This document shows positions 6,213 through 23,194 of a stretch of DNA of 32,000 bases, in pieces (within the stretch, counting starts at the first letter, position 1; each line of letters starts with the position of its first letter). The stretch comes from Gammaproteobacteria bacterium Psp_hYS2021 (GTDB lineage Bacteria > Pseudomonadota > Gammaproteobacteria > G963455285). Both the position numbers and the translations under genes were made by a program. The notes under the pieces are model-generated. The model was not told the DNA's origin. It made no database searches and saw nothing but the letters and a program-made list of their open reading frames with translations. The DNA lies in the NCBI GenBank assembly GCA_963455285.1, contig OY734021.1, positions 1,054,613-1,086,612 of the forward strand, read 5' to 3'.

Positions 6213-7079
6213 ATGAAAGCAATTATATTAGCAGGTGGTAATGGTACGAGGTTATATCCAATAACTAAATCTATATCTAAACAGCTACTACCTGTTTATG
6301 ATAAACCAATGATTTATTATCCACTATCTGTATTGATGTTAGCTGGAATAAAGGATATATTAATTATTACAACACCTCATGATATAGATAACTTTAAAAA
6401 GTTATTGTCAAATGGTGTTCAATGGGGGGTAAACTTAAGCTATGAAATTCAGGAAAGGCCGGATGGCTTAGCACAAGCATTTATTATAGGAGAAAGTTTT
6501 ATAGGAAGTGATAATGTTTGTTTAATTCTCGGAGATAATATTTTTTATGGTCAGGGATTTTCAAATATATTAAAAAGAGCAGTTCTGCTAAAAGATGGAG
6601 CAATTGTTTTTGCATATCCTGTTTTTGATCCGCATAGGTTTGGTGTAGTAGAGTTTGATAAAAATAATAAAGCTTTGTCCATCGAAGAAAAACCGGAAAA
6701 GCCTAAATCAAAATTTGCCGTTACCGGGCTTTATTTTTACGATAATAATGTAGTCAAAATTGCAAAAGAGATAAAACCATCAGCTAGAGGAGAGTTAGAA
6801 ATAACATCTGTTAATCAAGAATATTTAAAAAAGAGTAAACTACATGTAGAAGTTCTTGGTAGAGGTTTTGCTTGGCTTGACACTGGGACAGTTGATACAC
6901 TAATTGATGCAGGGCAGTTTGTTCAAACTATAGAAAACAGGCAAGGTTATAAAATAGCTTGTTTAGAGGAAATTGCATATAATAATGGATGGATAACTAA
7001 GGATAATCTACTGAAAATCGCTGAACAATACAATAATACTTATGGGTTGTATTTGAAAGGAATTATTGAACATGGATAA
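6213..7079 (+). CDS. rfbA: Glucose-1-phosphate thymidylyltransferase
   Basis: 288 aa. [46 protein letters not shown] is the canonical RmlA N-terminus. It starts only 19 nt after the leuB stop. Confidence 0.93.
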
Positions 7080-8094
7080 TATACTTATCACAGGTGGAGC
7101 AGGCTTTATAGGTTCTAACTTTATTTCATATATTCTTAATAAATATCAGGAATATTCTATTATCAATCTAGATAAATTGACTTATGCAGGTAGCTTAGAA
7201 AACTTGAAAGAGGTAGAAAATCATAATCGTTATACTTTTGTAAAAGGAGATATTATCGATGAAAATCTAGTTGAAAATATATTTAAAGATTATGATATAA
7301 GAAACGTAATACATTTTGCAGCAGAGTCACATGTTGATAACTCAATAGAGACACCTTTAATTTTTACTCAAAGTAATGTTGTTGGGACTCATGTATTGCT
7401 TAATGTAGCTTATAAATATTGGTTTGAAGAGCCATTTAAATATAAAAAAGAATATAATAACTCAAGATTTCATCATATATCGACAGATGAGGTTTACGGA
7501 ACATTAGGCAAAACAGGATATTTTACAGAAAACACTCCATATACACCGAATTCTCCATATAGTGCAAGTAAGGCGTCTTCTGATATGTTAGTAAGAAGTT
7601 ATTTTCATACATATAGATTAAATACTATAATAACAAACTGTTCTAACAATTACGGACAGAAACAGCACGATGAGAAATTGATTCCGACTATTATTAGAAA
7701 TGCCTTAAAAGAAAATAAAATTCCAATCTATGGCGATGGGAAAAATATTCGTGATTGGTTATATGTGGAAGACCATTGTAATGCGATAGATATAGTTTTT
7801 CATAAAGGAAAGGAAGGAGAAACATATAATATCGGGGGAAACAACGAACAGAATAATTTGGATTTGGCGAAGTTAATATGTTCTGTTTTGGATAAAGAAA
7901 AACCCAGAGGAAATAATAGACCGTATTCGGAATTAATAACCTTTGTAAAAGACAGACCAGGTCATGACAAAAGATATGCGATTGATTCTTCAAAGATATT
8001 TAATGAGTTAGAATGGGAAGCTAACAGTAATTTTGAGGATCTGTTATTAAAGACAATTAAATGGTATATAAATAAATATGATTCCGGTAACTAA
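7066..8094 (+). CDS. rfbB: dTDP-glucose 4,6-dehydratase
   Basis: 342 aa. Rossmann motif [15 protein letters not shown] catalytic YSASKASSD (YxxxK), and the [13 protein letters not shown]-terminal signature. It overlaps rfbA by 14 nt, suggesting translational coupling. Confidence 0.93.
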
Positions 8095-9139
8095 ACCATA
8101 TCTTCCTGATAGGAAAAAACTCAATTCATACATAGATAGGATATACGAAGCTAATCAGCTCACCAATAATGGATATTTACTCCAATCTCTTGAAGAACGC
8201 TTAAGAGAATATTTAAACATAAAAAATTTACTATTAGTTACAAATGGAACACTGGCGTTGCAGGTGATCTACAAAATACTTAGGATTCAAAAAGAAGTTA
8301 TAACTACGCCTTTTTCCTTTGTTGCAACGACAAGTTCTTTAGTTTGGGACGGGATAAAGCCGAGTTTTGTTGATATTGACAGAAAAACATTAAATATCGA
8401 TTTTTCCTTAATTCAAGAAAAAATTACAAATGATACCGAAGCTATACTCCCTGTACATGTTTATGGTAATGTTTGTGACGTTGAGCAAATTGATACAATT
8501 GCCAAACAAAACAATTTAAAAACAGTTTATGATGCGGCACATACCTTTGGCGTTCGGTATAAAAATAAAAGTATATTAAATTATGGGGATGCCTCAATAT
8601 TAAGCTTTCACGCAACTAAATTATTCCACACAATAGAAGGAGGAGCGATAGTATTTAAGGAGAAGGAAAATATTGATATAGCGAAGGAAATGATTAACTT
8701 TGGATTGTCAAACGGAGATATTAAAGAGCTTGGTATAAATACTAAAATGAACGAATTTCAAGCAGCTATGGGTTTAGCTGTATTGGATGATATTGAATAT
8801 ATTTTTGAAGAGCGCAAAAGACTATGGAATTTATACTATAGTTCTTTAAAAGATTTCGTAGAATTCCCCCAGTGGAATAATAATTCTAGCAATAATTATT
8901 CGTACTTCCCTATAATATTAGAAAGCAAAGAAAAACTTCTTAATATAGTCGATAAATTAAATGGAGAGAATATATTCCCAAGAAGGTATTTTTATCCTTC
9001 TTTAAACAAATTGAACTATGTTAACTATCAGAGATGCGTTATATCGGAAGATATTTCAAGACGAATATTGTGTCTTCCTTTTTATGTAGGATTAAGTAAT
9101 AATATTATTAATATGATAGCAGAGATTATAAAGCGATAA
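8078..9139 (+). CDS. DegT/DnrJ/EryC1/StrS-family PLP aminotransferase (dTDP-4-keto-6-deoxyhexose 4-aminotransferase, WbtI/WecE/VioA-like)
   Basis: 353 aa. IPVTKPYLP start, NGTLAL, DAAH, and SFHATK (PLP-lysine context) are typical of sugar aminotransferases. It overlaps rfbB by 17 nt. Gluco versus galacto product stereochemistry cannot be read from sequence. Confidence 0.85.
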   Translation: MIPVTKPYLPDRKKLNSYIDRIYEANQLTNNGYLLQSLEERLREYLNIKNLLLVTNGTLALQVIYKILRIQKEVITTPFSFVATTSSLVWDGIKPSFVDIDRKTLNIDFSLIQEKITNDTEAILPVHVYGNVCDVEQIDTIAKQNNLKTVYDAAHTFGVRYKNKSILNYGDASILSFHATKLFHTIEGGAIVFKEKENIDIAKEMINFGLSNGDIKELGINTKMNEFQAAMGLAVLDDIEYIFEERKRLWNLYYSSLKDFVEFPQWNNNSSNNYSYFPIILESKEKLLNIVDKLNGENIFPRRYFYPSLNKLNYVNYQRCVISEDISRRILCLPFYVGLSNNIINMIAEIIKR

Positions 9140-9158
9140 ATTGTATTGGCAAGAAAAC

Positions 9159-10727
9159 ATGCAAAAAAAAGAGAAAAAACTTTTACCCTTAGGAATTCAA
9201 ACCTTTGCAAAAATTCGTGATTCTAAAATGAATTATGCCTACGTTGATAAAACAGCAATGGCGTATGAAATGATACGAAAAGGAGGCTTTTGTTTTTTAT
9301 CTCGTCCGAGGCGTTTTGGTAAAAGTTTGTTTTTGGATACTTTGGCTGAAATATTCAAGGGCTCTAAAAAGATGTTTGAAGGGCTGTATATCTATGACAA
9401 ATGGGATTGGGAAACTAAATATCCGGTGCTAAAAATTAGTCTTGGTGGTGGTGGAGTTTATAAAAAAGAAAAACTAGATGGAAAATTACGAGATATTGTT
9501 TATTGGAATTCAAAATATCTGGAAATCGATCCAGAGATAAATGATCAGGAACCTCACCGCTTATTGAGTAATTTGATCCAATTAGCCCATAAAAAATACA
9601 ATCAACAAGTTGTAATTCTTGTTGATGAATACGACAAGCCTCTTTTGGATAATATTGGTAACGATGAACATATTGAAGAAATCAGAAGAACTATGCGCTC
9701 CTTTTATGCAGAGATTAAAAATAACGATGCATACATTCGTTTTGGCTTCATTACCGGAATAACTAAGTTTTCTCAGATGAGCTTTTTTAGTGATTTGAAT
9801 AATCTTACCGATATTAGTTTAGACCCTAGATATTCTACAATTACCGGCTACACTCAAAATGATTTGGAAGAAGTCTTCTCCGAATTTCTGGACGGTGTTG
9901 ACTTAGAGGAAGTGAGAAAATGGTACAATGGCTATATTTTTCTTGGTGAACCACTTTATAACCCCTATGATATTCTTAACTTTTTTGACAAACAAAACGT
10001 TTTTAAGAACTACTGGTGGCAAACCGGACAGCAAAGTTTTTTGACAAAAATGATGAAAGGAAAAAATTATCATTTACCAAACTTAGAGAACATTACCGTG
10101 GGGGAAGAAATACTGGAAAAGTTTAATATCGAAGATATAAATATAGTAGCACTATTGTGGCAAAGTGGGTATTTGACCTTTGATACAGTGGAACAAGATC
10201 CTTTTACAAAGACATTTTCATATAAATTGAGAGTACCTAATTTGGAAGTGCAGGCGTCGTTGAATTTACTGTTTTCCGCTTATTTGACCGATAAAGTTAC
10301 TGAAGATATAGTAGCCCGCAACGATATAGTAAAATCGCTTTATAATAATAATTTTGAGAAAGTAGAAGCATTGCTAAGGACTTTGTTTTCAAGCATTCCA
10401 TACGATAATCATGTAGGTAATACAATGTCGAATTATGAAGGATATTATGCCTCAGTAATTTACGCTTATTTAGCAGCTCTAGGTGTACCTTTGCTCTCTG
10501 AAGATCATTCAAACTTAGGACGGGCAGATATGACAATGTTTTTTCCTAACTCTATAATCATAATAGAGTTTAAGGTAGATAAGAATGAAGATGCGATAGA
10601 ACAAATAAGACACAAAAAATACTATGAGAAATACTTATCTGACAGTCGAGAAATATATTTAGTCGGTATAAAGTTTAGTAGCGAAGAAAAAAATATTACT
10701 AGCTTTGTTTATGAGAAACATGAATAA
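9159..10727 (+). CDS. Predicted AAA-ATPase fused to a PD-(D/E)XK nuclease domain (DUF1703-like; expected Pfam AAA-ATPase_like plus PDDEXK_9), copy 1
   Basis: P-loop-like FLSRPRRFGKSLFLDTL near the N-terminus and Walker-B-like QQVVILVDEYDKPL. C-terminal nuclease signature GRADMTMFFPNSIIIIEFKVDK (D...ExK). The ATG at 9159 (MQKKEKKLLPLGIQTF) is preferred over the track's TTG at 9141 because copy 2 has the same ATG context. Family assignment is from memory of the motif layout, not a search. Confidence 0.75.
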   Translation: MQKKEKKLLPLGIQTFAKIRDSKMNYAYVDKTAMAYEMIRKGGFCFLSRPRRFGKSLFLDTLAEIFKGSKKMFEGLYIYDKWDWETKYPVLKISLGGGGVYKKEKLDGKLRDIVYWNSKYLEIDPEINDQEPHRLLSNLIQLAHKKYNQQVVILVDEYDKPLLDNIGNDEHIEEIRRTMRSFYAEIKNNDAYIRFGFITGITKFSQMSFFSDLNNLTDISLDPRYSTITGYTQNDLEEVFSEFLDGVDLEEVRKWYNGYIFLGEPLYNPYDILNFFDKQNVFKNYWWQTGQQSFLTKMMKGKNYHLPNLENITVGEEILEKFNIEDINIVALLWQSGYLTFDTVEQDPFTKTFSYKLRVPNLEVQASLNLLFSAYLTDKVTEDIVARNDIVKSLYNNNFEKVEALLRTLFSSIPYDNHVGNTMSNYEGYYASVIYAYLAALGVPLLSEDHSNLGRADMTMFFPNSIIIIEFKVDKNEDAIEQIRHKKYYEKYLSDSREIYLVGIKFSSEEKNITSFVYEKHE

Positions 10728-10740
10728 TGGGCAAGAAAAC

Positions 10741-12312
10741 ATGCAAAAAAAAGAAAAAAAACTTTTACCCTTAGGAATTCAAACCTTTGCAGATATACGC
10801 GATCCTAAAAGAAACTATGCCTACGTTGATAAAACAGCAATGGCATATCAAATGATATCCGGAGGTACTAAATATTGTTTTTTATCTCGTCCGAGACGTT
10901 TTGGGAAAAGTTTGTTTTTGGATACTTTGGCTGAAATATTCAAGGGCTCTAAAAAGATGTTTGAAGGGCTTTATATCTATGACAAATGGGATTGGAATAC
11001 TAAATATCCAGTGCTAAAAATTAGTCTTGGTGGAGGTGGAGTTTATAAAAAAGAAGAACTAGATGGAAAATTACGGGATATTGTTTATTGGAATTCAAAA
11101 TATCTGGAAATCGATCCAGAGATAAATGATCAGGAACCTCACCGCTTATTGAGCAATTTGATTCAATTAGCCCATAAAAAATACAATCAGCAGGTTGTGA
11201 TTCTTGTTGATGAATACGACAAACCTCTTTTGGATAATATTGGCAATGATGAACATATTGAAGAAATCAGAAGAACTATGCGCTCCTTTTATGCAGAGAT
11301 TAAAAATAACGATGCATACATTCGCTTTGGCTTCATTACCGGAATAACTAAGTTTTCTCAGATGAGCTTTTTTAGTGACTTAAATAATCTTACTGATATT
11401 AGTTTAGATCCAAGATATTCTACAATTACAGGCTACACTCAAAATGACTTGGAAGAAGTATTCGCCGAGTTTTTGGATGGGGTTGACTTAGAAGAGGTGA
11501 GAAAATGGTACAATGGCTATAATTTTCTTGGTGAACCACTTTATAACCCCTACGATATTCTCAATTTCTTTGACAAGCAAAACGTTTTTAAGAATTACTG
11601 GTGGCAAACCGGACAGCAAAGTTTTTTGACAAAAATGATGAAAGGAAAAAATTATCATCTACCAAACTTAGAGAACATTACCGTGGGGGAAGAAATACTG
11701 GAAAAGTTTAATATCGAAGATATAAATATAGTAGCACTATTGTGGCAAAGTGGATACTTGACCTTTGATACAGTGGAACAAGATCCTTTTACAAAGACAT
11801 TTTCGTATAAATTGAGAGTACCTAATTTGGAAGTGCAGGCATCGTTGAATCTGCTTTTTGCCACTTATTTGACCGATAAAGCCACAGAGGATATAGTAGC
11901 CCGCAACGATATGGTGAAATCGCTTTATAACAATAATTTTGAGAAGGTGGAAGAATTGCTAAGGACTTTGTTTGCAAGTATTCCGTACGATAATCATGTT
12001 GGTAATACAATGTCGAATTATGAAGGGTATTATGCTTCAGTAATTTATGCTTATTTAGCAGCTCTAGGTGTACCTTTGCTCTCTGAAGATCATTCAAACT
12101 TAGGACGGGCAGATATGACAATGTTTTTTCCTAACTCTATAACCATAATAGAATTTAAGGTTGATAAGAATGAAAACCCGATAGAACAAATAAAGCGAAA
12201 AAAATACTATGAAAAATACTTATCTGATGGTCGGGAAATATATTTAGTTGGAATCAAATTCAGTAGCGAAGAAAGAAATATTACTAGCTTTGTTTATGAA
12301 AAATATGAATAA
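10741..12312 (+). CDS. Predicted AAA-ATPase fused to a PD-(D/E)XK nuclease domain, copy 2 (paralogue of 9159..10727)
   Basis: Same motifs as copy 1: FLSRPRRFGKS, VILVDEYDKPL, GRADMTMFFPNSITIIEFKVDK. The reading frame is intact. Hand alignment shows about 25 substitutions plus one extra codon relative to copy 1. The ATG at 10741 lies 13 nt after the copy-1 stop. Confidence 0.75.
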   Translation: MQKKEKKLLPLGIQTFADIRDPKRNYAYVDKTAMAYQMISGGTKYCFLSRPRRFGKSLFLDTLAEIFKGSKKMFEGLYIYDKWDWNTKYPVLKISLGGGGVYKKEELDGKLRDIVYWNSKYLEIDPEINDQEPHRLLSNLIQLAHKKYNQQVVILVDEYDKPLLDNIGNDEHIEEIRRTMRSFYAEIKNNDAYIRFGFITGITKFSQMSFFSDLNNLTDISLDPRYSTITGYTQNDLEEVFAEFLDGVDLEEVRKWYNGYNFLGEPLYNPYDILNFFDKQNVFKNYWWQTGQQSFLTKMMKGKNYHLPNLENITVGEEILEKFNIEDINIVALLWQSGYLTFDTVEQDPFTKTFSYKLRVPNLEVQASLNLLFATYLTDKATEDIVARNDMVKSLYNNNFEKVEELLRTLFASIPYDNHVGNTMSNYEGYYASVIYAYLAALGVPLLSEDHSNLGRADMTMFFPNSITIIEFKVDKNENPIEQIKRKKYYEKYLSDGREIYLVGIKFSSEERNITSFVYEKYE

Positions 12313-12326
12313 TGGAAAAAGGAAAT

Positions 12327-12565
12327 ATGAAGCTAGCAATAATGCAACCTTACTTTTTCCCGTATATAGGGTACTTTCAATTGATTAATGAAGTAGAGAA
12401 GTCGGATAGAGAGAATATATTTCCACAAAGGTATTTTTATATATCTCTTAATAATTTGATTATCATAAATGTTCTGTTTCAGAAAATATTTCGAAGTGTG
12501 TTTTGTGGATTCCTTTTTATGTGGAACTGGAAGAAGGTATTGTGGAAAAATTATTTGAGTCATAA
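12327..12565 (+). pseudogene. Chimeric gene remnant: 5' stub of a WbqC-family gene fused to a frameshifted 3' remnant of a DegT-type aminotransferase
   Basis: MKLAIMQPYFFPYIGYFQLINEVEK (12327 to about 12401) is the characteristic WbqC-family N-terminus and then stops matching. From 12409, ENIFPQRYFYISLNNL parallels ENIFPRRYFYPSLNKL of the intact aminotransferase (8964 onward). After a +1 shift, DYHKCSVSENISKCVLWIPFYVELEEGIVEKLFES* parallels NYQRCVISEDISRRILCLPFYVGLSNNIINMIAEIIKR*. The remnant's stop at 12563-12565 sits 9 nt before the formyltransferase ATG. Confidence 0.75.
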
Positions 12566-12574
12566 AAAAGAATT

Positions 12575-13300
12575 ATGGAAATATTAGTTTTAACAGATAA
12601 TGAATTTCTTTACGATGGATTTTTGAAAATAATAGGCGGTGAGATGTATTCTGGCTATAGCTTTACATTTCGTTATTCTCCTGGAAACCTGGAGTTTGAG
12701 AAAAAGTACAACAAAGACCATTTTAAAGCATTGGACGTTAAGACAGTGTTAGAATCAAAAATAGATTATGCTGTTATAATATCTCTTCATTCGAAGCAAA
12801 TTTTCCCAAATGATTTAATTAATAATATAACTTGTATAAATGTCCACCCGGGTTTTAACCCCTATAATAGAGGATGGTATCCTCATATTTACAGTATTAT
12901 TAACGGAAAACCTGCAGGTATTACAATACATTTAATAGATGAAAAAATTGATCATGGGCGAATAATATATCAAGAAGAACTTGAAATATACAACACTGAT
13001 ACATCTTATACTATCTATGAAAGAATAATTAATAAAGAACTGCTAATTTTAGAAGATAAGCTTATGGATTTAATTATAGGAAAATATAGAACAAAACCTA
13101 TGAATTCTAAAGGGAATATAAACTATAAAAAAGACTTTAATGCAATATGTAAACTAGATTTAAATGAAAAACTCACTATGAGAGAAGCTATTAACAAATT
13201 AAGAGCATTAACCCATTTGGATCACAAAAATGCTTTTTTTGTAGATGAAAAAACTAAAGAAAAAATATATGTTTCTATTCAATTAGAAAAAGATGAATGA
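12575..13300 (+). CDS. dTDP-4-amino-4,6-dideoxyhexose N-formyltransferase (WbtJ/VioF-like, N10-formyl-THF dependent)
   Basis: 241 aa. Formyltransferase core SLHSKQIFP...INVHPGFNPYNRGWYPHIYSIINGKPAGITIHLIDEKIDHGRIIYQ carries the catalytic N/H/D-type pattern (NVHPG ... DHG). Size and layout match the small sugar N-formyltransferases. Confidence 0.8.
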   Translation: MEILVLTDNEFLYDGFLKIIGGEMYSGYSFTFRYSPGNLEFEKKYNKDHFKALDVKTVLESKIDYAVIISLHSKQIFPNDLINNITCINVHPGFNPYNRGWYPHIYSIINGKPAGITIHLIDEKIDHGRIIYQEELEIYNTDTSYTIYERIINKELLILEDKLMDLIIGKYRTKPMNSKGNINYKKDFNAICKLDLNEKLTMREAINKLRALTHLDHKNAFFVDEKTKEKIYVSIQLEKDE

Positions 13301-13340: not shown

Positions 13341-14504
13341 CTACTTGCTATTTAAGTTATTTAAAGCAACATTTATTAATTTTTTTGTTTTATCATCTAT
13401 AGAGACTCTACTATAGATAGCATCAATGAGCAGTTTGTTCACTTCAGCTTGCTTTATAGTTAATAGTGAACCCCAGTTTGGTCTTTTTAGATCATCCAGT
13501 TCGAATATAAAAAAACCTTTTTCTTTTAAAAAATGATAGATAGGATTACTCTTATCTAAAAATACCTTTGCTCCCGAATAAAGAAGCATAAGTATATTAC
13601 CAAGTCCTTGTTGTCTTTTATGAGGCATAATCCCATATGAGCACGATGCAATGATTTTCACATAGTCATCAAAAGAGAGAAAGTCATCTAAAAAAACTAT
13701 TTCCCCACTGAAGTTTGTCTTTGCATATTCCTTAACTATATTAGTATAAGCTTTCTCACCATAATTTAATGGAATAATAAGCTTTGACTTAGCGGTATCT
13801 ATATCCTTTAAATAATCAATACCTTTAATATGATTACATGTAAATGTAGCACTATTTCCCAAAAGAATATTTTTCTTATTAGGAAAAGTATTGGTATTAA
13901 ATGCTTTTCCCCAGTGATCCTCTACAGTTCCATAGTTCCAGTCCATTAGTTTAGGTTTTATATTTGCAGGCCATTTTATCATGTTATATTCTGTCATAAT
14001 AACTGGACAAAAATAATCAATTTGCTTAATAAATTTATTTCTAATGCTGATTTGGTATTTTTCCCAAAAAATTAGTTTTTTGATGAGTTTTTTTATAGTT
14101 CTGATAATTTTTATGATAAAAGAATGGTTATAATAATTGAGGCCTTTAAAAACCTTCAAAGTTTTCTTACATAACAATTTTTCATATGGGAAAATCATAT
14201 CATAATAATCATATCCCCAGCCAAGCCAGATTGTTTTTACGCGTTTAGGGATTGTAATATTGTGAGTACAAAGAGAATGTAGTACTAATATATCTATATC
14301 CTTCCAAAATAACTTATCTTTAGATTTTTTATTTACATCCATATTAGACAGAATAAGTTTATTTTGAACTTTTACATGAATTAGAACTTTATCATCAGAT
14401 ATAATAATCAGTTTATTACTACCGGGTACTACTCTCTCGAATGATTTAATCCCCATGTCTATAAACTTCTCGTCAGGTGCAATATGTAAAATCCCTAATC
14501 TCAT
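13341..14504 (-). CDS. WecF-like (GT56 family) 4-amino-4,6-dideoxyhexose transferase
   Basis: 387 aa. The blocks LLGNSATFTCNHIKGIDYL...LIIPLNYG and GIMPHKRQQGLGNILMLLYSGAKVFLDKSNPIYHFL resemble E. coli WecF (LVGNSGDRSNEHIAAL...[40 protein letters not shown]). The comparison is from recalled sequence, so confidence is moderate. Confidence 0.6.
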   Translation of the reverse strand: MRLGILHIAPDEKFIDMGIKSFERVVPGSNKLIIISDDKVLIHVKVQNKLILSNMDVNKKSKDKLFWKDIDILVLHSLCTHNITIPKRVKTIWLGWGYDYYDMIFPYEKLLCKKTLKVFKGLNYYNHSFIIKIIRTIKKLIKKLIFWEKYQISIRNKFIKQIDYFCPVIMTEYNMIKWPANIKPKLMDWNYGTVEDHWGKAFNTNTFPNKKNILLGNSATFTCNHIKGIDYLKDIDTAKSKLIIPLNYGEKAYTNIVKEYAKTNFSGEIVFLDDFLSFDDYVKIIASCSYGIMPHKRQQGLGNILMLLYSGAKVFLDKSNPIYHFLKEKGFFIFELDDLKRPNWGSLLTIKQAEVNKLLIDAIYSRVSIDDKTKKLINVALNNLNSK

Positions 14505-17510: not shown

Positions 17511-18545
<1,035 letters not shown>

Positions 18546-19296
18546 TTAATTTTTTTTGTTTGCTAATAATGATAAATAATGATAAAACTAATTCCTAAAA
18601 AGATTATGTATATTACCTATTACATAATCGATTTGACAAATTTTTAAGTCAAGTATCACGTATTCTTACAGTTTAAGATCACTATATACTAATAAATACT
18701 TTATAGTGTTTAGCTATATTTACAGTTGCTAGTATAACATTTTTTATTAAAGTTAGGGCTACAGTTTATTTTTTAATATAATTAAATAAATATAATTTTA
18801 AGTATAAATTTTGGTAAAATTAATTAGAGTTATTACTTAATACGCAGGTACATAAAGTTTAAATATCTATTATATGGTACCTAATTAAACAATATATATT
18901 AGTCATTAGGTAAGAATAAGTATGAAAATCTAAATTATAATTAAAATTAAAGATACTGTTAATTTTAGTGTTGATTAGATGCAATTATTGTATTTAATGC
19001 ATGATTTGTGTATTATTATATATACTGAAACTAAAAATAACTTAGGATTTTATGAGTTAATTATTAGTTTGACTTTATAAATAGAGTTTGTAAAATAATT
19101 GTTATTTTGGAGTGAAAAACTCTAAAAGAATTTTATGCTCTGTTGGATTATAAGTTAAAATCATTAGTATAAATTAATAACTATGAGTTAGTTTAATCTT
19201 TTTGTTCAGATTATTAGTTAATGAAATTTTTGTCTAATTTTAAGTTTTTTAATAAATACTAGGCTTTATTTAAGGTAAAGCCAGGGTGGTAATGCT

Positions 19297-19681: not shown

Positions 19682-20542
19682 TTGAAAAATCATAACCTAT
19701 CGCAGATCAATTTTATGTTCAGAACAGGCTTTGCTACAGATATGGGTAATTACAAATCTGTAAATGAAGATACTCTATTATGTGATTATGATAGAGGTTT
19801 ATTTTTGGTTTGTGATGGAATGGGTGGTTATGAAGGTGGCAGTGTTGCAAGTACTATAGTTACAGATGTTATTTCTGAAGAACTCACTAACGGCAAAACA
19901 CTGGTAGATGCTATTCATTTGGCAAATAATAAAGTGATAGAGGCTGCAGAGAAAGGTTTAGGCTCTAGCAGTATGGGCTCCACTGCTGTTTGTATAAACT
20001 TAAATGAGTTTGGATTTTTTGACTTAGCATGGGTAGGTGATAGTAGGGCTTACTATATAACAAAAGATGACATGATTATGTTAACAGAAGACCATACCTT
20101 TGTAGGTTTACTGTTACGGGAAGGATATATAAAAGAATCTGAAGTATATGACCATCCTTATAAGCATATATTGTTACAAGCAGTAGGTGGAGGTAAAAAA
20201 GAAATATATGTGAGCCATGGTATTGGTAAATTAGAGAAAGACGCTACCATATTACTTTGCTGTGATGGACTTACTAATGAAATATCAGATGATGAAATTC
20301 ACAAAATAATCATAGAGGCTGAAACCTTGCAAGAAGCAGCAGATAAGTTAGTCAATACAGCTGTAGACTATGGAGGCAGAGATAATATAACTGCTGTTTT
20401 ATTTTCTATGGATATAGATGAGGCAGATAGTAATAAAAATGCTAAAACGCAAGCATCGGTTGCTATAGATGAGGATAATTATGATGAATCAGACATACTC
20501 TCAAAAACTAATATTTCAAAGTCTGTAAATAATAATAACTAA
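19682..20542 (+). CDS. PP2C-family Ser/Thr protein phosphatase
   Basis: PPM motifs are all present: GFATDMGNYKSVNEDT, LVCDGMGG, WVGDSRAY, CCDGLTN, GGRDNITAV. The track start is TTG at 19682. The ATG at 19715 (MFRTGFATDMG) is the more likely start. Confidence 0.88.
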   Translation: MKNHNLSQINFMFRTGFATDMGNYKSVNEDTLLCDYDRGLFLVCDGMGGYEGGSVASTIVTDVISEELTNGKTLVDAIHLANNKVIEAAEKGLGSSSMGSTAVCINLNEFGFFDLAWVGDSRAYYITKDDMIMLTEDHTFVGLLLREGYIKESEVYDHPYKHILLQAVGGGKKEIYVSHGIGKLEKDATILLCCDGLTNEISDDEIHKIIIEAETLQEAADKLVNTAVDYGGRDNITAVLFSMDIDEADSNKNAKTQASVAIDEDNYDESDILSKTNISKSVNNNN

Positions 20543-20563
20543 TAGTTTATTGATTTAATTATT

Positions 20564-23194
20564 ATGCCTATTATAACTAAGCGTAATGAGGTCCCAGGTT
20601 ATTTAGTCCAGCGCCTGATAGGTCGAGGTGGTATGGCTGAGGTATACTTAGCCAAAGATGTAAAGACTGAAGAGGAATTTGCATTAAAAATAATGTCTGG
20701 CAATATTATAAATGACCCACATTTTAAAATTCGTATAACTAAAGAAATACAGGTTTTAGAAAATTTATCTCATAATAATATTGTAAAATTTTTTGGTTTT
20801 GGCCAGGAAAAAAGCTTTTTTATGTATATGGTTTTAGAGTATATACAGGGACCAGATCTAAAAAAGAGAATTTTATCAGGAAATGTAGATATAAATAGAA
20901 TTATCCGCTGGTTAAACGAAATAGCTGATGGGTTAGACTATGCTCACAGTATAGGTTATGTTCATCGAGATATAAAGCCTGAGAATATATTATTACGCAA
21001 AAATGACAGTGCGGTTATAACAGACTTTGGTATAGCAAAAGCTATGAATTCATCTACTAAAGTGACAGGCACTGGAATGTCTATAGGTACTCCATATTAT
21101 ATGAGTCCTGAGCAGGCTAGAGGGCAAAAATTAGACTATAGAACTGATATATATTCCTTAGGCATAATGATGTACGAAATGTTGGTAGGGCAGGTTCCAT
21201 TCGGAGGAGCTGATTCTATATCAATAGGAATAATGCATATTAGCAAACCTATACCTAAATTGCCTTCCAAATTTGTCTACTGGGAGCCATTATTGAATAA
21301 GTTAACTGCTAAAAAAAGAGAAGACAGATATGATAACCTAAAGTTATTTATAAATGATTTAAAAGAGCTCGAAGCCAGTGGAAAAGCTATTATTTCTGAT
21401 GAAGAAGTAGAAAAAACAAAATCGCTTTTATCAGCACCGCCTGCTACTTCTGCATCGCAACCGCAACAACAATTTAATATTGAACAAAATAGTACCTCCT
21501 CTAGTATTGATTCTAGTCTTGTTGATGAGCAACCATTACCATCTTCAACATCATCTAAAGGGCGTACATCTTCTAGACGATCTTATGTGAGCCAAAATAC
21601 AAGAATTAGGAAAACAAGTAGATTAACACCTATAATTGTATGGACTGTTATGGTATTGGGTCTTGTAGGACTTTCTTATATAGGTTATATTTTATTCTCT
21701 CAGTCATTAGAGCATACAGCAGATACAAGGAGTAGTTTATTATCTGATGCAAGAGAACAAGTAGATTCAGGGAATTATTTTGAACCAAGCAATAATAATG
21801 CTATGAATACCATATCTGGAGTTTTATTAAATGAACCGTCGAGCTCTTTAGCTTGGGGATTGTTAGATAATATGATAAGTGATTATGATGATATAACAAA
21901 TAGTGAGATTCAAAGAGTTCTAATATTCTTACGTGCTAATGGCAATATAAATAATGTCTCTAATACTTATACTTCTAATATATTCGATACGCTAATACAA
22001 AGAAAAATATCTCAAGGTCAATTAGTTACACCTACCACATCTAGTGCTGTTTATTTAGTAACTCAAGCAAGGGAAATATTACCTAATAATACAGCTGTAA
22101 ATCAGTTATACAATAATGTTTTATCGCAAGTAAGACAAAATGCTCAAAATATAGCTAGTCAAGGTAACACCCAAGGTGCAGTTGATTTTCTTTCTAATGC
22201 ACAAAGCTCAGGTGATAATACATTAGCGACAGCTAACCAAATAAATCAGTTAAGAGCTTCACTAGTAGCTAATACTACTACATCACCACCTCCCCAGCAG
22301 ACTGTAACAAATATAAATAATAGTAATAATACAAACTCATCATTAACATCAAGATTACAAGCTCCTACTTCGTCATCACCTTCTTCATCTAGAAAATCGT
22401 TGGTTTCTCCTTCAGGAGGAAGCAATACTTTAGCACAAAGATCAGCAACAACACCTTCATCTAATGTGCCTACTTCTGAAATAGAAAGAGTTGTAAACCA
22501 AATAATTCAGGAAATGCAATATATAAGAGGAGGGACATTTAAAATGGGCAATCAATCAGGTAATGTGGACTATGGTGAAGAGTTGCCTGTTATAGATGTA
22601 ACAGTTGGTAATTTTTACATAAGTAGATTTACGATTACTTTTGAGGAGTATGATGTTTTTGCAAGAGCTACAGGAAGACCTTTACCAAGTGATGCTGGTT
22701 GGGGTAGGGGTAGACGACCGGCGATAAATATAAGCTGGAATGATGCTCAGGATTTCACACGATGGCTTACAAGTGTTACTAATATAACTTTTAGGTTACC
22801 TACAGAATCTGAATGGGAATATGCATCTAGAGCTGGTTCTGATGAAGTTTATACATGGGGAACAACTTTCGTTGATGGATTTTCAAACTGTTCTGATTGT
22901 AATACGCCTTACTCCAATCAAACAGCTCCAGTGGGTAGCTTTAAACCAAATAGGTGGGGGTTATACGATATGCATGGTAATGTGTGGCAGTGGGTCCAAG
23001 ACTGTTGGCAAGGAAATTTAAGTTCTGTTCCTAGAAATGGCTCTGCTGCAAATGTTCCTGATTGTAAAGAGCGAGTTTTGAGGGGAGGGTCTTGGTATAA
23101 TCCTTCGGATTCTTTGAGAGCTTCTAGAAGAGATAGATCACCACCAAGTTCTAGATCTAATTATGATGGATTTAGAGTAGTTATGATTACATAA
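20564..23194 (+). CDS. Transmembrane Hanks-type Ser/Thr protein kinase with C-terminal FGE/SUMF1-like (formylglycine-generating-enzyme fold) domain
   Basis: Kinase domain, about aa 13-268: GRGGMAEVY, ALKIM, HRDIKPENILL, DFGIAKA, GTPYYMSPEQ. A basic stretch RRSYVSQNTRIRKTSR precedes one TM helix LTPIIVWTVMVLGLVGLSYIGYILF (aa 354-378, nt about 21623-21697). Next come about 190 aa of helical-repeat-like sequence and then an S/T/P/N-rich linker. FGE-like domain, about aa 651-874 (nt about 22514-23185): GGTFKMG, WNDAQDF, RLPTESEWEYA, GLYDMHGNVWQWVQD, RVLRGGSW, GFRVV. Confidence 0.88.
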   Translation: MPIITKRNEVPGYLVQRLIGRGGMAEVYLAKDVKTEEEFALKIMSGNIINDPHFKIRITKEIQVLENLSHNNIVKFFGFGQEKSFFMYMVLEYIQGPDLKKRILSGNVDINRIIRWLNEIADGLDYAHSIGYVHRDIKPENILLRKNDSAVITDFGIAKAMNSSTKVTGTGMSIGTPYYMSPEQARGQKLDYRTDIYSLGIMMYEMLVGQVPFGGADSISIGIMHISKPIPKLPSKFVYWEPLLNKLTAKKREDRYDNLKLFINDLKELEASGKAIISDEEVEKTKSLLSAPPATSASQPQQQFNIEQNSTSSSIDSSLVDEQPLPSSTSSKGRTSSRRSYVSQNTRIRKTSRLTPIIVWTVMVLGLVGLSYIGYILFSQSLEHTADTRSSLLSDAREQVDSGNYFEPSNNNAMNTISGVLLNEPSSSLAWGLLDNMISDYDDITNSEIQRVLIFLRANGNINNVSNTYTSNIFDTLIQRKISQGQLVTPTTSSAVYLVTQAREILPNNTAVNQLYNNVLSQVRQNAQNIASQGNTQGAVDFLSNAQSSGDNTLATANQINQLRASLVANTTTSPPPQQTVTNINNSNNTNSSLTSRLQAPTSSSPSSSRKSLVSPSGGSNTLAQRSATTPSSNVPTSEIERVVNQIIQEMQYIRGGTFKMGNQSGNVDYGEELPVIDVTVGNFYISRFTITFEEYDVFARATGRPLPSDAGWGRGRRPAINISWNDAQDFTRWLTSVTNITFRLPTESEWEYASRAGSDEVYTWGTTFVDGFSNCSDCNTPYSNQTAPVGSFKPNRWGLYDMHGNVWQWVQDCWQGNLSSVPRNGSAANVPDCKERVLRGGSWYNPSDSLRASRRDRSPPSSRSNYDGFRVVMIT

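Follow-up and report, generated by a model that had tools for sequence, protein, structure and literature searches.

An intact tandem pair of DUF1703 ATPase–nuclease genes inside a bacterial dTDP-sugar operon

Proteins of the DUF1703 family join an AAA-ATPase-like domain (PF09820) to a PD-(D/E)XK nuclease domain (PF08011) in a single polypeptide. Here we analyse two members of this known family that lie in tandem in a dTDP-sugar operon of Gammaproteobacteria bacterium Psp_hYS2021, within a 32,000-nt window of contig OY734021.1 (assembly GCA_963455285.1, forward-strand positions 1,054,613 to 1,086,612); all coordinates, open reading frames (ORFs) and parts below are window positions, on the + strand unless marked. 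Their divergence indicates an old duplication whose products are kept by strong purifying selection, and the pair is best explained as having entered the operon in one segment of DNA together with a replacement sugar aminotransferase. Identity and history are much firmer than function. For the latter we favour, with evenly divided confidence, an ATP-gated, DNA-binding endonuclease that would act alone in a genetic-conflict role, be it defence, exclusion or stabilisation.

Copy 1 (9159–10727) encodes 522 amino acids from its likely ATG at 9159, within an open frame of 9141–10727, and copy 2 (10741–12312) encodes 523 from the homologous ATG, within an open frame of 10705–12312. From ATG 9159 copy 1 matches database protein P0122 exactly; the database entry for copy 2, P0121, starts at 10711 and has 533 amino acids, as against the homologous ATG at 10741. 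Protein identity between the copies is 95%, and DNA identity 93%. In copies 1 and 2, respectively, PF09820 (AAA-ATPase_like) matches over its whole profile (1–201 of 201) at 198.5 and 199 bits, against a gathering cut-off of 26.1 bits (E = 1.3e-58 and 1e-58), and PF08011 (PDDEXK_9) at 69 and 72.4 bits, against 25.5 bits (E = 3.9e-19 and 3e-20). An earlier note, made from the letters of this DNA, had described two adjacent intact genes of about 522 amino acids, quoted their motifs, placed them in this family and proposed these two Pfam entries as the check. The ORFs, translations and Pfam matches bear all of this out, and Pfam and NCBIfam agree with the flanks that it gave, an aminotransferase upstream, a formyltransferase downstream and a fragment ORF between; its limits for the pair, 9148 and 12315, were off by a few bases.

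Translation places in copy 1 a variant Walker A motif, RPRRFGKS (R49–S56; 9303–9326), a Walker B motif, DEYDK (D156–K160; 9624–9638), and a nuclease core comprising E448, R455-x-D457, E470-x-K472 and Q482 (10500–10604), with GRAD at about 10518–10529 and EFK at 10566–10574. Both Walker motifs and the core residues are invariant across an alignment of 63 homologues that are 50–83% identical. Motifs I–IV of the PD-(D/E)XK fold, consisting of an acidic residue in the first helix (E448), the aspartate (D457), ExK (E470-x-K472) and a glutamine in the second helix (Q482), are complete. In copy 2, RPRRFGKS lies at 10888–10911, DEYDK at 11209–11223, GRAD at 12103–12120 and EFK at 12151–12159.

The same layout was reported by Knizewski et al. 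in 2007 (PMC1913061), with an AAA+ domain carrying an RPRRFGKS Walker A and a DEYD Walker B, a helical linker and PD-(D/E)XK motifs I–IV. Steczkiewicz et al. in 2012 found the genomic context of DUF1703 to be non-conserved, owing to duplications (PMC3424549), and Siozios et al. in 2019, who left the function open, counted 0 to 25 copies per genome, with fewer than four in most species and 25 paralogues in one Cardinium genome (PMC6387759). The architecture, motifs, multi-copy habit and lack of conserved context were thus published between 2007 and 2019. That the family is widespread, often multi-copy and lacks an assigned function, as the earlier note stated, matches these reports and our profile search of 1.84 billion cluster representatives (50% identity), in which 26,624 passed a threshold of E ≤ 1e-3 and 5,377 one of E ≤ 1e-30. 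Lengths are close to 520 amino acids in almost all members, and nearly all of the top 150 of the 26,624 representatives have 500–540. New here are the old duplicates under strong selection, their excess of G+C at third codon positions (GC3), the anatomy of the adjoining scar, the arrival with a replacement aminotransferase and the Cdc6/Orc1-like fold of the N-terminal region.

The source genome (2,063,259 bp) encodes at least four members: P0122, P0121, P0001 and P0002. At 98.5% identity P0001 stands closer to copy 1 than copy 2 does, a hint that duplication or gene conversion took place recently at another site of the genome; P0002 is 83% identical. Between the two tandem copies there are 77 synonymous and 33 non-synonymous changes, corresponding to a synonymous divergence (dS) of 0.31, a non-synonymous divergence (dN) of 0.026 and a dN/dS of 0.09. 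On these values the duplication is old and both copies have been maintained by strong purifying selection; neither shows any sign of decay. Diversifying selection between the copies was considered and rejected, given the low dN/dS and because their 27 amino-acid differences fall at positions that vary throughout the family (mean entropy 2.19 versus 1.40 bits).

The composition of the pair sets it apart at third codon positions. GC3 of the copies is 0.298 and 0.307, which is 3.6–4 standard deviations (SD) over the other 21 genes (mean 0.203, SD 0.026), and the next highest value belongs to the intact aminotransferase directly upstream (0.26, z 2.2). Total GC was rejected as a sign of foreign origin, as the copies (0.33–0.34) lie within the range of the window (0.25–0.37). 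A stretch of about 37% G+C that had been counted by hand in copy 1 and taken for a foreign signal is not meaningful, since the mean GC of the pair is on a level with that of housekeeping genes such as accC (0.35), and the comparison with comEC offered alongside it is uninformative, comEC being an unusually AT-rich membrane-protein gene. The genes are closely packed, with junctions of TAA-19 nt-ATG before copy 1 and TAA-13 nt-ATG between the copies, followed by a TAATG overlap with a 91-codon ORF. A scan for promoters and terminators gave a chance-level count (47 found versus 49 expected) and placed no terminator on the + strand between the genes; neither Rfam families nor tRNAs turned up when the window was scanned for them.

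The operon begins with rmlA, for glucose-1-phosphate thymidylyltransferase (6213–7079; PF00483, E = 3e-74), followed by rmlB, for dTDP-glucose 4,6-dehydratase (7066–8094; PF16363, E = 6e-91), and an intact DegT/DnrJ/EryC1-type sugar aminotransferase gene (8078–9139; PF01041, E = 4e-82). Beyond the pair, the 91-codon ORF (12312–12587) is a composite, confirming the gene-fragment scar that the earlier note had pointed out. It holds a wbqC-like 5′ stub of 25 codons, MKLAIMQPYFFPYIGYFQLINEVEK (12327–12401; PF08889 WbqC profile positions 1–19 of 218, E = 8e-5), fused to the 3′ end of a pseudogene for a second, divergent aminotransferase, of which the last roughly 65 codons remain (12385–12565). This remnant is frameshifted near 12458 and ends at its own stop (12563–12565), 10 nt before the ATG of a gene for a dTDP-4-amino-4,6-dideoxyglucose N-formyltransferase of the VioF/WbtJ type (12575–13300; NF005755, 249.8 bits versus a cut-off of 238; PF00551 and PF18216). 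Direct repeats D3 and D4 link the remnant DNA, at 70–75% nucleotide identity, to 8940–9087 of the intact aminotransferase gene, whose 3′ end is repeated at 12385–12522 with about 72% nucleotide identity, and tblastn aligns the remnant in two frames to residues 276–353 of the intact enzyme at 42–44% amino-acid identity. A convergent GT56 (WecF-like) glycosyltransferase gene (13341–14504, − strand; PF07429, E = 1e-18), with comEC next to it, ends the + strand operon.

Comparison with the nearest three of the retrievable formyltransferase loci, L161, L162 and L163 (the latter two of Fusobacterium type), suggests how this arrangement arose. In all three a DegT aminotransferase gene directly precedes the formyltransferase gene with a 4-nt overlap, and none has a DUF1703 gene. 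Because an aminotransferase holds that place, the remnant is the original partner of the formyltransferase, and the intact aminotransferase is probably an incoming replacement copy. The best explanation for the intact aminotransferase, the DUF1703 pair and the wbqC stub is that they came in as a single segment, which was joined illegitimately within the old aminotransferase gene; the left-hand crossover of the segment was not located. The secondary arrival proposed by the earlier note is therefore supported, on the grounds of the GC3 excess, the scar anatomy and the DUF1703-free layout of the three loci rather than the GC count on which it had relied. The host itself is an isolated gammaproteobacterial lineage: the best relative of the formyltransferase is 53% identical and the best named relatives of AccC about 66%. 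The locus offers a clean, small example of O-antigen-type operon remodelling through a replacement aminotransferase with passenger genes.

A role for the pair in the polysaccharide pathway or its regulation is scarcely credible. Its operonic position between aminotransferase and formyltransferase, with minimal gaps, would fit such a role, as would one 66%-identical homologue that also lies among MBOAT and polysaccharide genes. Against this, the homologous formyltransferase loci do without DUF1703, the domains are those of nucleic-acid enzymes, and the scar shows that the pair arrived secondarily. Homologues likewise show no preference for sugar genes: the 124 immediate neighbours of 89 homologues spread over 202 Pfam families, each seen at most three times, and no conserved partner emerges. 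Given this and its absence from L161–L163, the pair is not part of the dTDP-4-formamido-4,6-dideoxyglucose pathway, and DUF1703 was not syntenic with the pathway anywhere examined.

The wider distribution of the family is one of repeated, scattered copies. A genome scan found 568 relatives, of which the best 80 (45–54% identity) come from metagenome-assembled genomes (MAGs) of Saprospiraceae, Campylobacterota, Deferribacterales, Desulfuromonadaceae, sponge symbionts and others, often with several per MAG and many on short contigs. Tandem arrays recur, with five genes in L034, three in L051 and two each in L012, L013 and L029, and array members are 56–86% identical. The five-gene array (L034:10001–17748) belongs to a Deferribacterales MAG and the three-gene array (L051:3700–11548) to a Desulfobacteraceae MAG. 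The nearest homologues (66–68% identity) have around them either sulfatase and kinase genes or MBOAT genes beside a PIN toxin.

Within a lineage, paralogues at separate loci have in common a conserved stretch of about 50–150 nt directly upstream of the start codon. One such stretch is CCTTTACAATATAAATAGTTTTTAGTATCTTAGCAC, in Saprospiraceae (L008, L011, L013, L020, L022 and L042), and another, in Desulfuromonadaceae, has a promoter-like motif TTGCAG...TAGTAT (L060, L061, L068, L077 and L079). A promoter or leader of its own thus seems to come with each copy in these relatives. The window copies have no such lineage-type stretch.

The Cdc6 clade of ATPases, to which we return below, also includes the IstB and DnaC-type transposition helpers, and an alternative reading is that DUF1703 is a selfish mobile gene, an ATPase–nuclease that spreads itself in a homing- or transposase-like manner and whose paralogues are copies of the element. 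We regard this as unlikely. It would account for the multiple copies in many genomes, often on short contigs or contig ends, and for the at least four copies in a genome of 2.06 Mb, including the 98.5%-identical P0001; fragments of the gene have been treated as candidates resembling miniature inverted-repeat transposable elements in Cardinium (PMC12039267), and within lineages the upstream stretch travels with the gene. These upstream stretches, however, look like promoters particular to each lineage, and downstream no conserved end turned up. Around the pair itself we found no flanking or terminal inverted repeats and no target-site duplications; the repeat unit is merely the ORF plus a 14-nt leader; and the pair came in with a larger recombined segment, as its passenger. 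Unlike the copies of insertion sequences (IS), the paralogues are under purifying selection and show old divergence (dS 0.31 here, 56–86% identity in arrays). The selfish element suggested by the earlier note thus finds no support. A transposon-like structure was likewise rejected, for want of flanking inverted repeats and a conserved downstream end, and given copies that are 93% identical in nucleotides at a dS of 0.31.

Plasmids and integrative elements also carry the family. Among 72,556 plasmids 62 have DUF1703 genes, frequently more than one each; most of these plasmids are large and non-mobilizable. A tandem pair on the Calditerrivibrio plasmid pCALNI01 (L164; NC_014749.1, 37428–40642) lies beside a methyltransferase/HNH restriction-modification (RM) pair and IS elements, an Azotobacter plasmid copy is surrounded by RelE/ParE, HipA, MqsA and AbiEii genes, and a copy on a Moraxella plasmid has partition genes on one side and a resolvase on the other. 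IMG/VR yielded 133 distant members (best-segment identity 23–46%, mostly about 24–36%). Two of these loci, when examined, are integrative elements with serine recombinases, single-strand annealing proteins (SSAPs) and DUF932, one of them adjoining an AAA_14 + DUF4143 protein. Curated phage genomes were without DUF1703, the 30 matches in INPHARED being unannotated metagenomic faecal ‘Bacteriophage sp.’ fragments, and BFVD returned generic AAA+/RFC folds only.

Proteins combining AAA_14 with DUF4143 adjoin DUF1703 genes in three MAG loci and in the integrative-element locus L105 (5894–7090). Separately, three neighbours of DUF1703 genes match the PADLOC candidate PDC-S01, which may, as a guess, be equivalent to the AAA_14 + DUF4143 proteins.

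We turned to predicted structure for the likely mode of action. An AlphaFold2 model of whole copy 1, built on the 63-sequence alignment, has a predicted local distance difference test (pLDDT) score of 86 and a predicted template modelling (pTM) score of 0.86, and its secondary-structure map divides the roughly 520 residues into four parts: an AAA+ base, a helical/winged-helix part, a variable helical linker and the nuclease. Sequence searches of the PDB, with the single protein and with the 63-sequence profile, gave chance matches only. With Foldseek the whole model had weak matches only, to RFC, Avs3 (prob 0.91, TM-score about 0.3), CinB, CidB and TSEN, and the nuclease domain matched the nuclease folds of CinB/CidB (7et0, 7esz, 7fiw) and TSEN.

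A separate model of residues 1–360 (pLDDT 87) was more informative. Foldseek matched it to Cdc6 in the Drosophila ORC–Cdc6–DNA complex (7jgr_G; E = 6.6e-5, prob 1.0), to archaeal Cdc6/Orc1 on origin DNA (2qby_A; E = 2.2e-4) and to Aeropyrum pernix ORC2 (1w5s_B; E = 1.1e-3), in alignments that span 383–428 columns, essentially the whole length; classical AAA domains, among them those of Vps4 and p97, were matched as well. Because the Cdc6/Orc1 matches extend over the whole length, the N-terminal two-thirds are predicted to be an AAA+ base, lid and winged helix arranged as in replication initiators, a likeness at the level of architecture. This agrees with the fold recognition of 2007, which had pointed to 1fnn (PMC1913061). 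The likeness suggests ATP-regulated binding of double-stranded DNA by DUF1703. Structure prediction, which the earlier note had proposed with an oligomeric ATPase-plus-nuclease geometry in view, recovered both folds and added the Cdc6/Orc1-like character of the first.

An initiator-like ATPase fused to a nuclease might equally be imagined as a housekeeping factor in repair, recombination or replication restart. The Cdc6/Orc1-like fold with its winged helix, the frequency of PD-(D/E)XK domains among repair enzymes (PMC3424549) and the strong purifying selection all accord with such a factor; its distribution does not. Copy numbers run patchily from 0 to 25 per genome (PMC6387759), context is not conserved, plasmids and integrative elements carry the gene, and its composition here is foreign. 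We therefore consider a housekeeping role quite unlikely.

The fold matches of the nuclease domain to CinB and CidB raise another possibility, that of an effector nuclease aimed at a eukaryotic host, as CifB would suggest by analogy and as has been proposed for the expanded DUF1703 of Cardinium. Intracellular symbionts (Cardinium, Rickettsia and Simkania) have an enlarged set of the family, whose members there were predicted to be secreted (PMC6387759). Most carriers, however, are free-living environmental bacteria, and the window encodes biosynthesis of Leu, Ile/Val and Thr, which suggests a free-living host here too. The N-terminus, MQKKEKKLLPLGIQTF..., is hydrophilic by eye, has no stretch resembling a signal peptide and is part of the conserved domain; moreover, the protein has only one nuclease domain and lacks a partner like CifA. 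An effector role would thus be very unlikely for this pair.

Returning to the ATP-gated endonuclease that we favour, its action can be outlined as follows. Because relatives have no conserved partner, a DUF1703 protein would work alone. With ATP bound to its Cdc6-like module, the protein would be driven to bind DNA through the winged helix and to self-assemble on it, and this would in turn license cleavage by the C-terminal nuclease. Diverged tandem paralogues might widen the range of targets or form hetero-oligomers. The distribution of the family, which is patchy, multi-copy and horizontally mobile, suggests a genetic-conflict role, as do the toxin–antitoxin, RM, abortive infection and recombinase genes that keep company with it on plasmids and integrative elements; such a role could consist in restriction of, or abortive defence against, incoming DNA, or in stabilisation of the carrying element.

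Several results weigh against this reading. In PADLOC-DB v2.0.0, whose 5,027 hidden Markov models of system proteins include RADAR RdrA, Avs, PARIS, OLD, Gabija and Septu, neither copy matched any family at E ≤ 1, and in NCBIfam neither matched any at E ≤ 0.01. Weak PF09820 matches in RdrA, PARIS and OLD have been noted in a review (PMC10952713); the reverse search, of the copies against the PADLOC models of these three, was negative. PHROGs likewise gave no significant match, the best of its weak ones having an E of 0.005. The 124 genes adjacent to DUF1703 matched 40 PADLOC model families, as against 20 for 124 control genes at least four genes away in the same loci, a crude test whose excess is suggestive at most and not a clear enrichment. 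Moreover, a pair that has no promoter of its own and lies in a biosynthetic operon does not look like a typical defence island. On the structural side, TM-scores to Cdc6/ORC are low (0.35–0.38), indicating a likeness of domain architecture and not a rigid-body match. The usual AAA+ sensor-1 and sensor-2 residues were reported to be replaced or missing in DUF1703 (PMC1913061), which makes true ATP hydrolysis a putative activity, and a full-text search of the literature found no functional study and no biochemical or genetic data for any member. With none of 5,027 PADLOC models matched and adjacent-gene matches only about twice the control, the defence function inferred by the earlier note, a reasonable and plausible hypothesis that present defence-system models fail to recognise, is not established.

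A bolder form of the proposal, which we put forward tentatively, is that DUF1703 may be a single-gene system of immunity or restriction that is very widespread and has gone unrecognised, in which a Cdc6/ORC-like switch would sense foreign DNA, or load onto it, and would fire the fused nuclease. If so, the arrays (two genes here, up to five elsewhere and 25 in the Cardinium genome) would be a repertoire of specificities, and the intact, selected pair a convenient test case. The instance itself is ordinary; its value lies in the handle it gives on the function of a family with tens of thousands of sequence clusters, including those of gut Bacteroidales and insect symbionts. Intact, under purifying selection and compact, at 1.6 kb per gene, the pair makes a reasonable construct for the first tests of the family.

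Some further observations lie outside these arguments. Proteins that bear an ‘AAA-ATPase-like domain’ are mentioned in the literature on insect genomes (the whitefly Bemisia tabaci and a mealybug B chromosome) and may mean that arthropods have acquired this bacterial family by transfer. Elsewhere in the window, a PP2C-type phosphatase gene is followed by one for an 876-amino-acid Ser/Thr protein kinase (19682–23194 together), which has a long low-complexity linker rich in S, T, Q and N and a C-terminal domain that by eye resembles the formylglycine-generating enzyme/sulfatase-modifying factor (…RVLRGGSW…). A 766-nt gap of about 21% GC (18531–19296), between ilvC (− strand) and a HIT-family gene, contains no ORF of at least 80 amino acids, Rfam family or tRNA. 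An open frame on the − strand (1 to about 1750), at least 580 codons long, runs off the left edge of the window, adjoined by a gene for a Pal/OmpA-like lipoprotein (1862–2428, − strand).

Comparison with known systems places the pair firmly within its family. With DUF1703 at large it shares the order and length of its domains, Walker A and B, the four nuclease motifs, the multi-copy habit and the non-conserved context, and we see no structural difference; its particulars are the tandem arrangement in a dTDP-sugar operon, the scar and the measured purifying selection. With Cdc6/Orc1 (2qby, 1w5s, 7jgr chain G) it has in common the AAA+ base, lid and C-terminal winged helix, but identity is only about 10–12%, and it differs in its arginine-rich Walker A, its fused nuclease, the lack of any link to a replication origin and the reported loss of canonical sensors (PMC1913061). 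Avs3 and the other STAND-type Avs proteins (PDB 8dgc), to which the weak fold match noted above points, likewise combine a P-loop NTPase switch with a PD-(D/E)XK-type nuclease in a single polypeptide encoded by a stand-alone gene. In the pair, however, the domain order is reversed, with the nuclease C-terminal, there is no tetratricopeptide repeat or large sensor array, and the protein has about 520 amino acids versus about 2,000. Its best-matching ATPases, moreover, are Cdc6/ORC and classical AAA proteins rather than STAND, and the PADLOC Avs models had no match. McrBC offers a mechanistic parallel, in that an AAA+ NTPase assembles on DNA and licenses a PD-(D/E)XK nuclease, as in the model proposed here for DUF1703; unlike the pair, it consists of two polypeptides, uses GTP and has an N-terminal reader of modified bases, and no homology between the two was detected, though none was tested for. 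CifB/CinB share the PD-(D/E)XK fold of the nuclease domain, and CifB is reported to have an AAA-ATPase-like region (PMC12445526), but CifB is much larger, has two nuclease domains and requires its partner CifA, whereas the pair has one nuclease domain and no conserved neighbour. Finally, the AAA_14 + DUF4143 proteins (PF13173 + PF13635) are likewise stand-alone and multi-copy and combine an ATPase with a putative nuclease-like domain, yet they belong to different Pfam families and have no detectable sequence relation to DUF1703.

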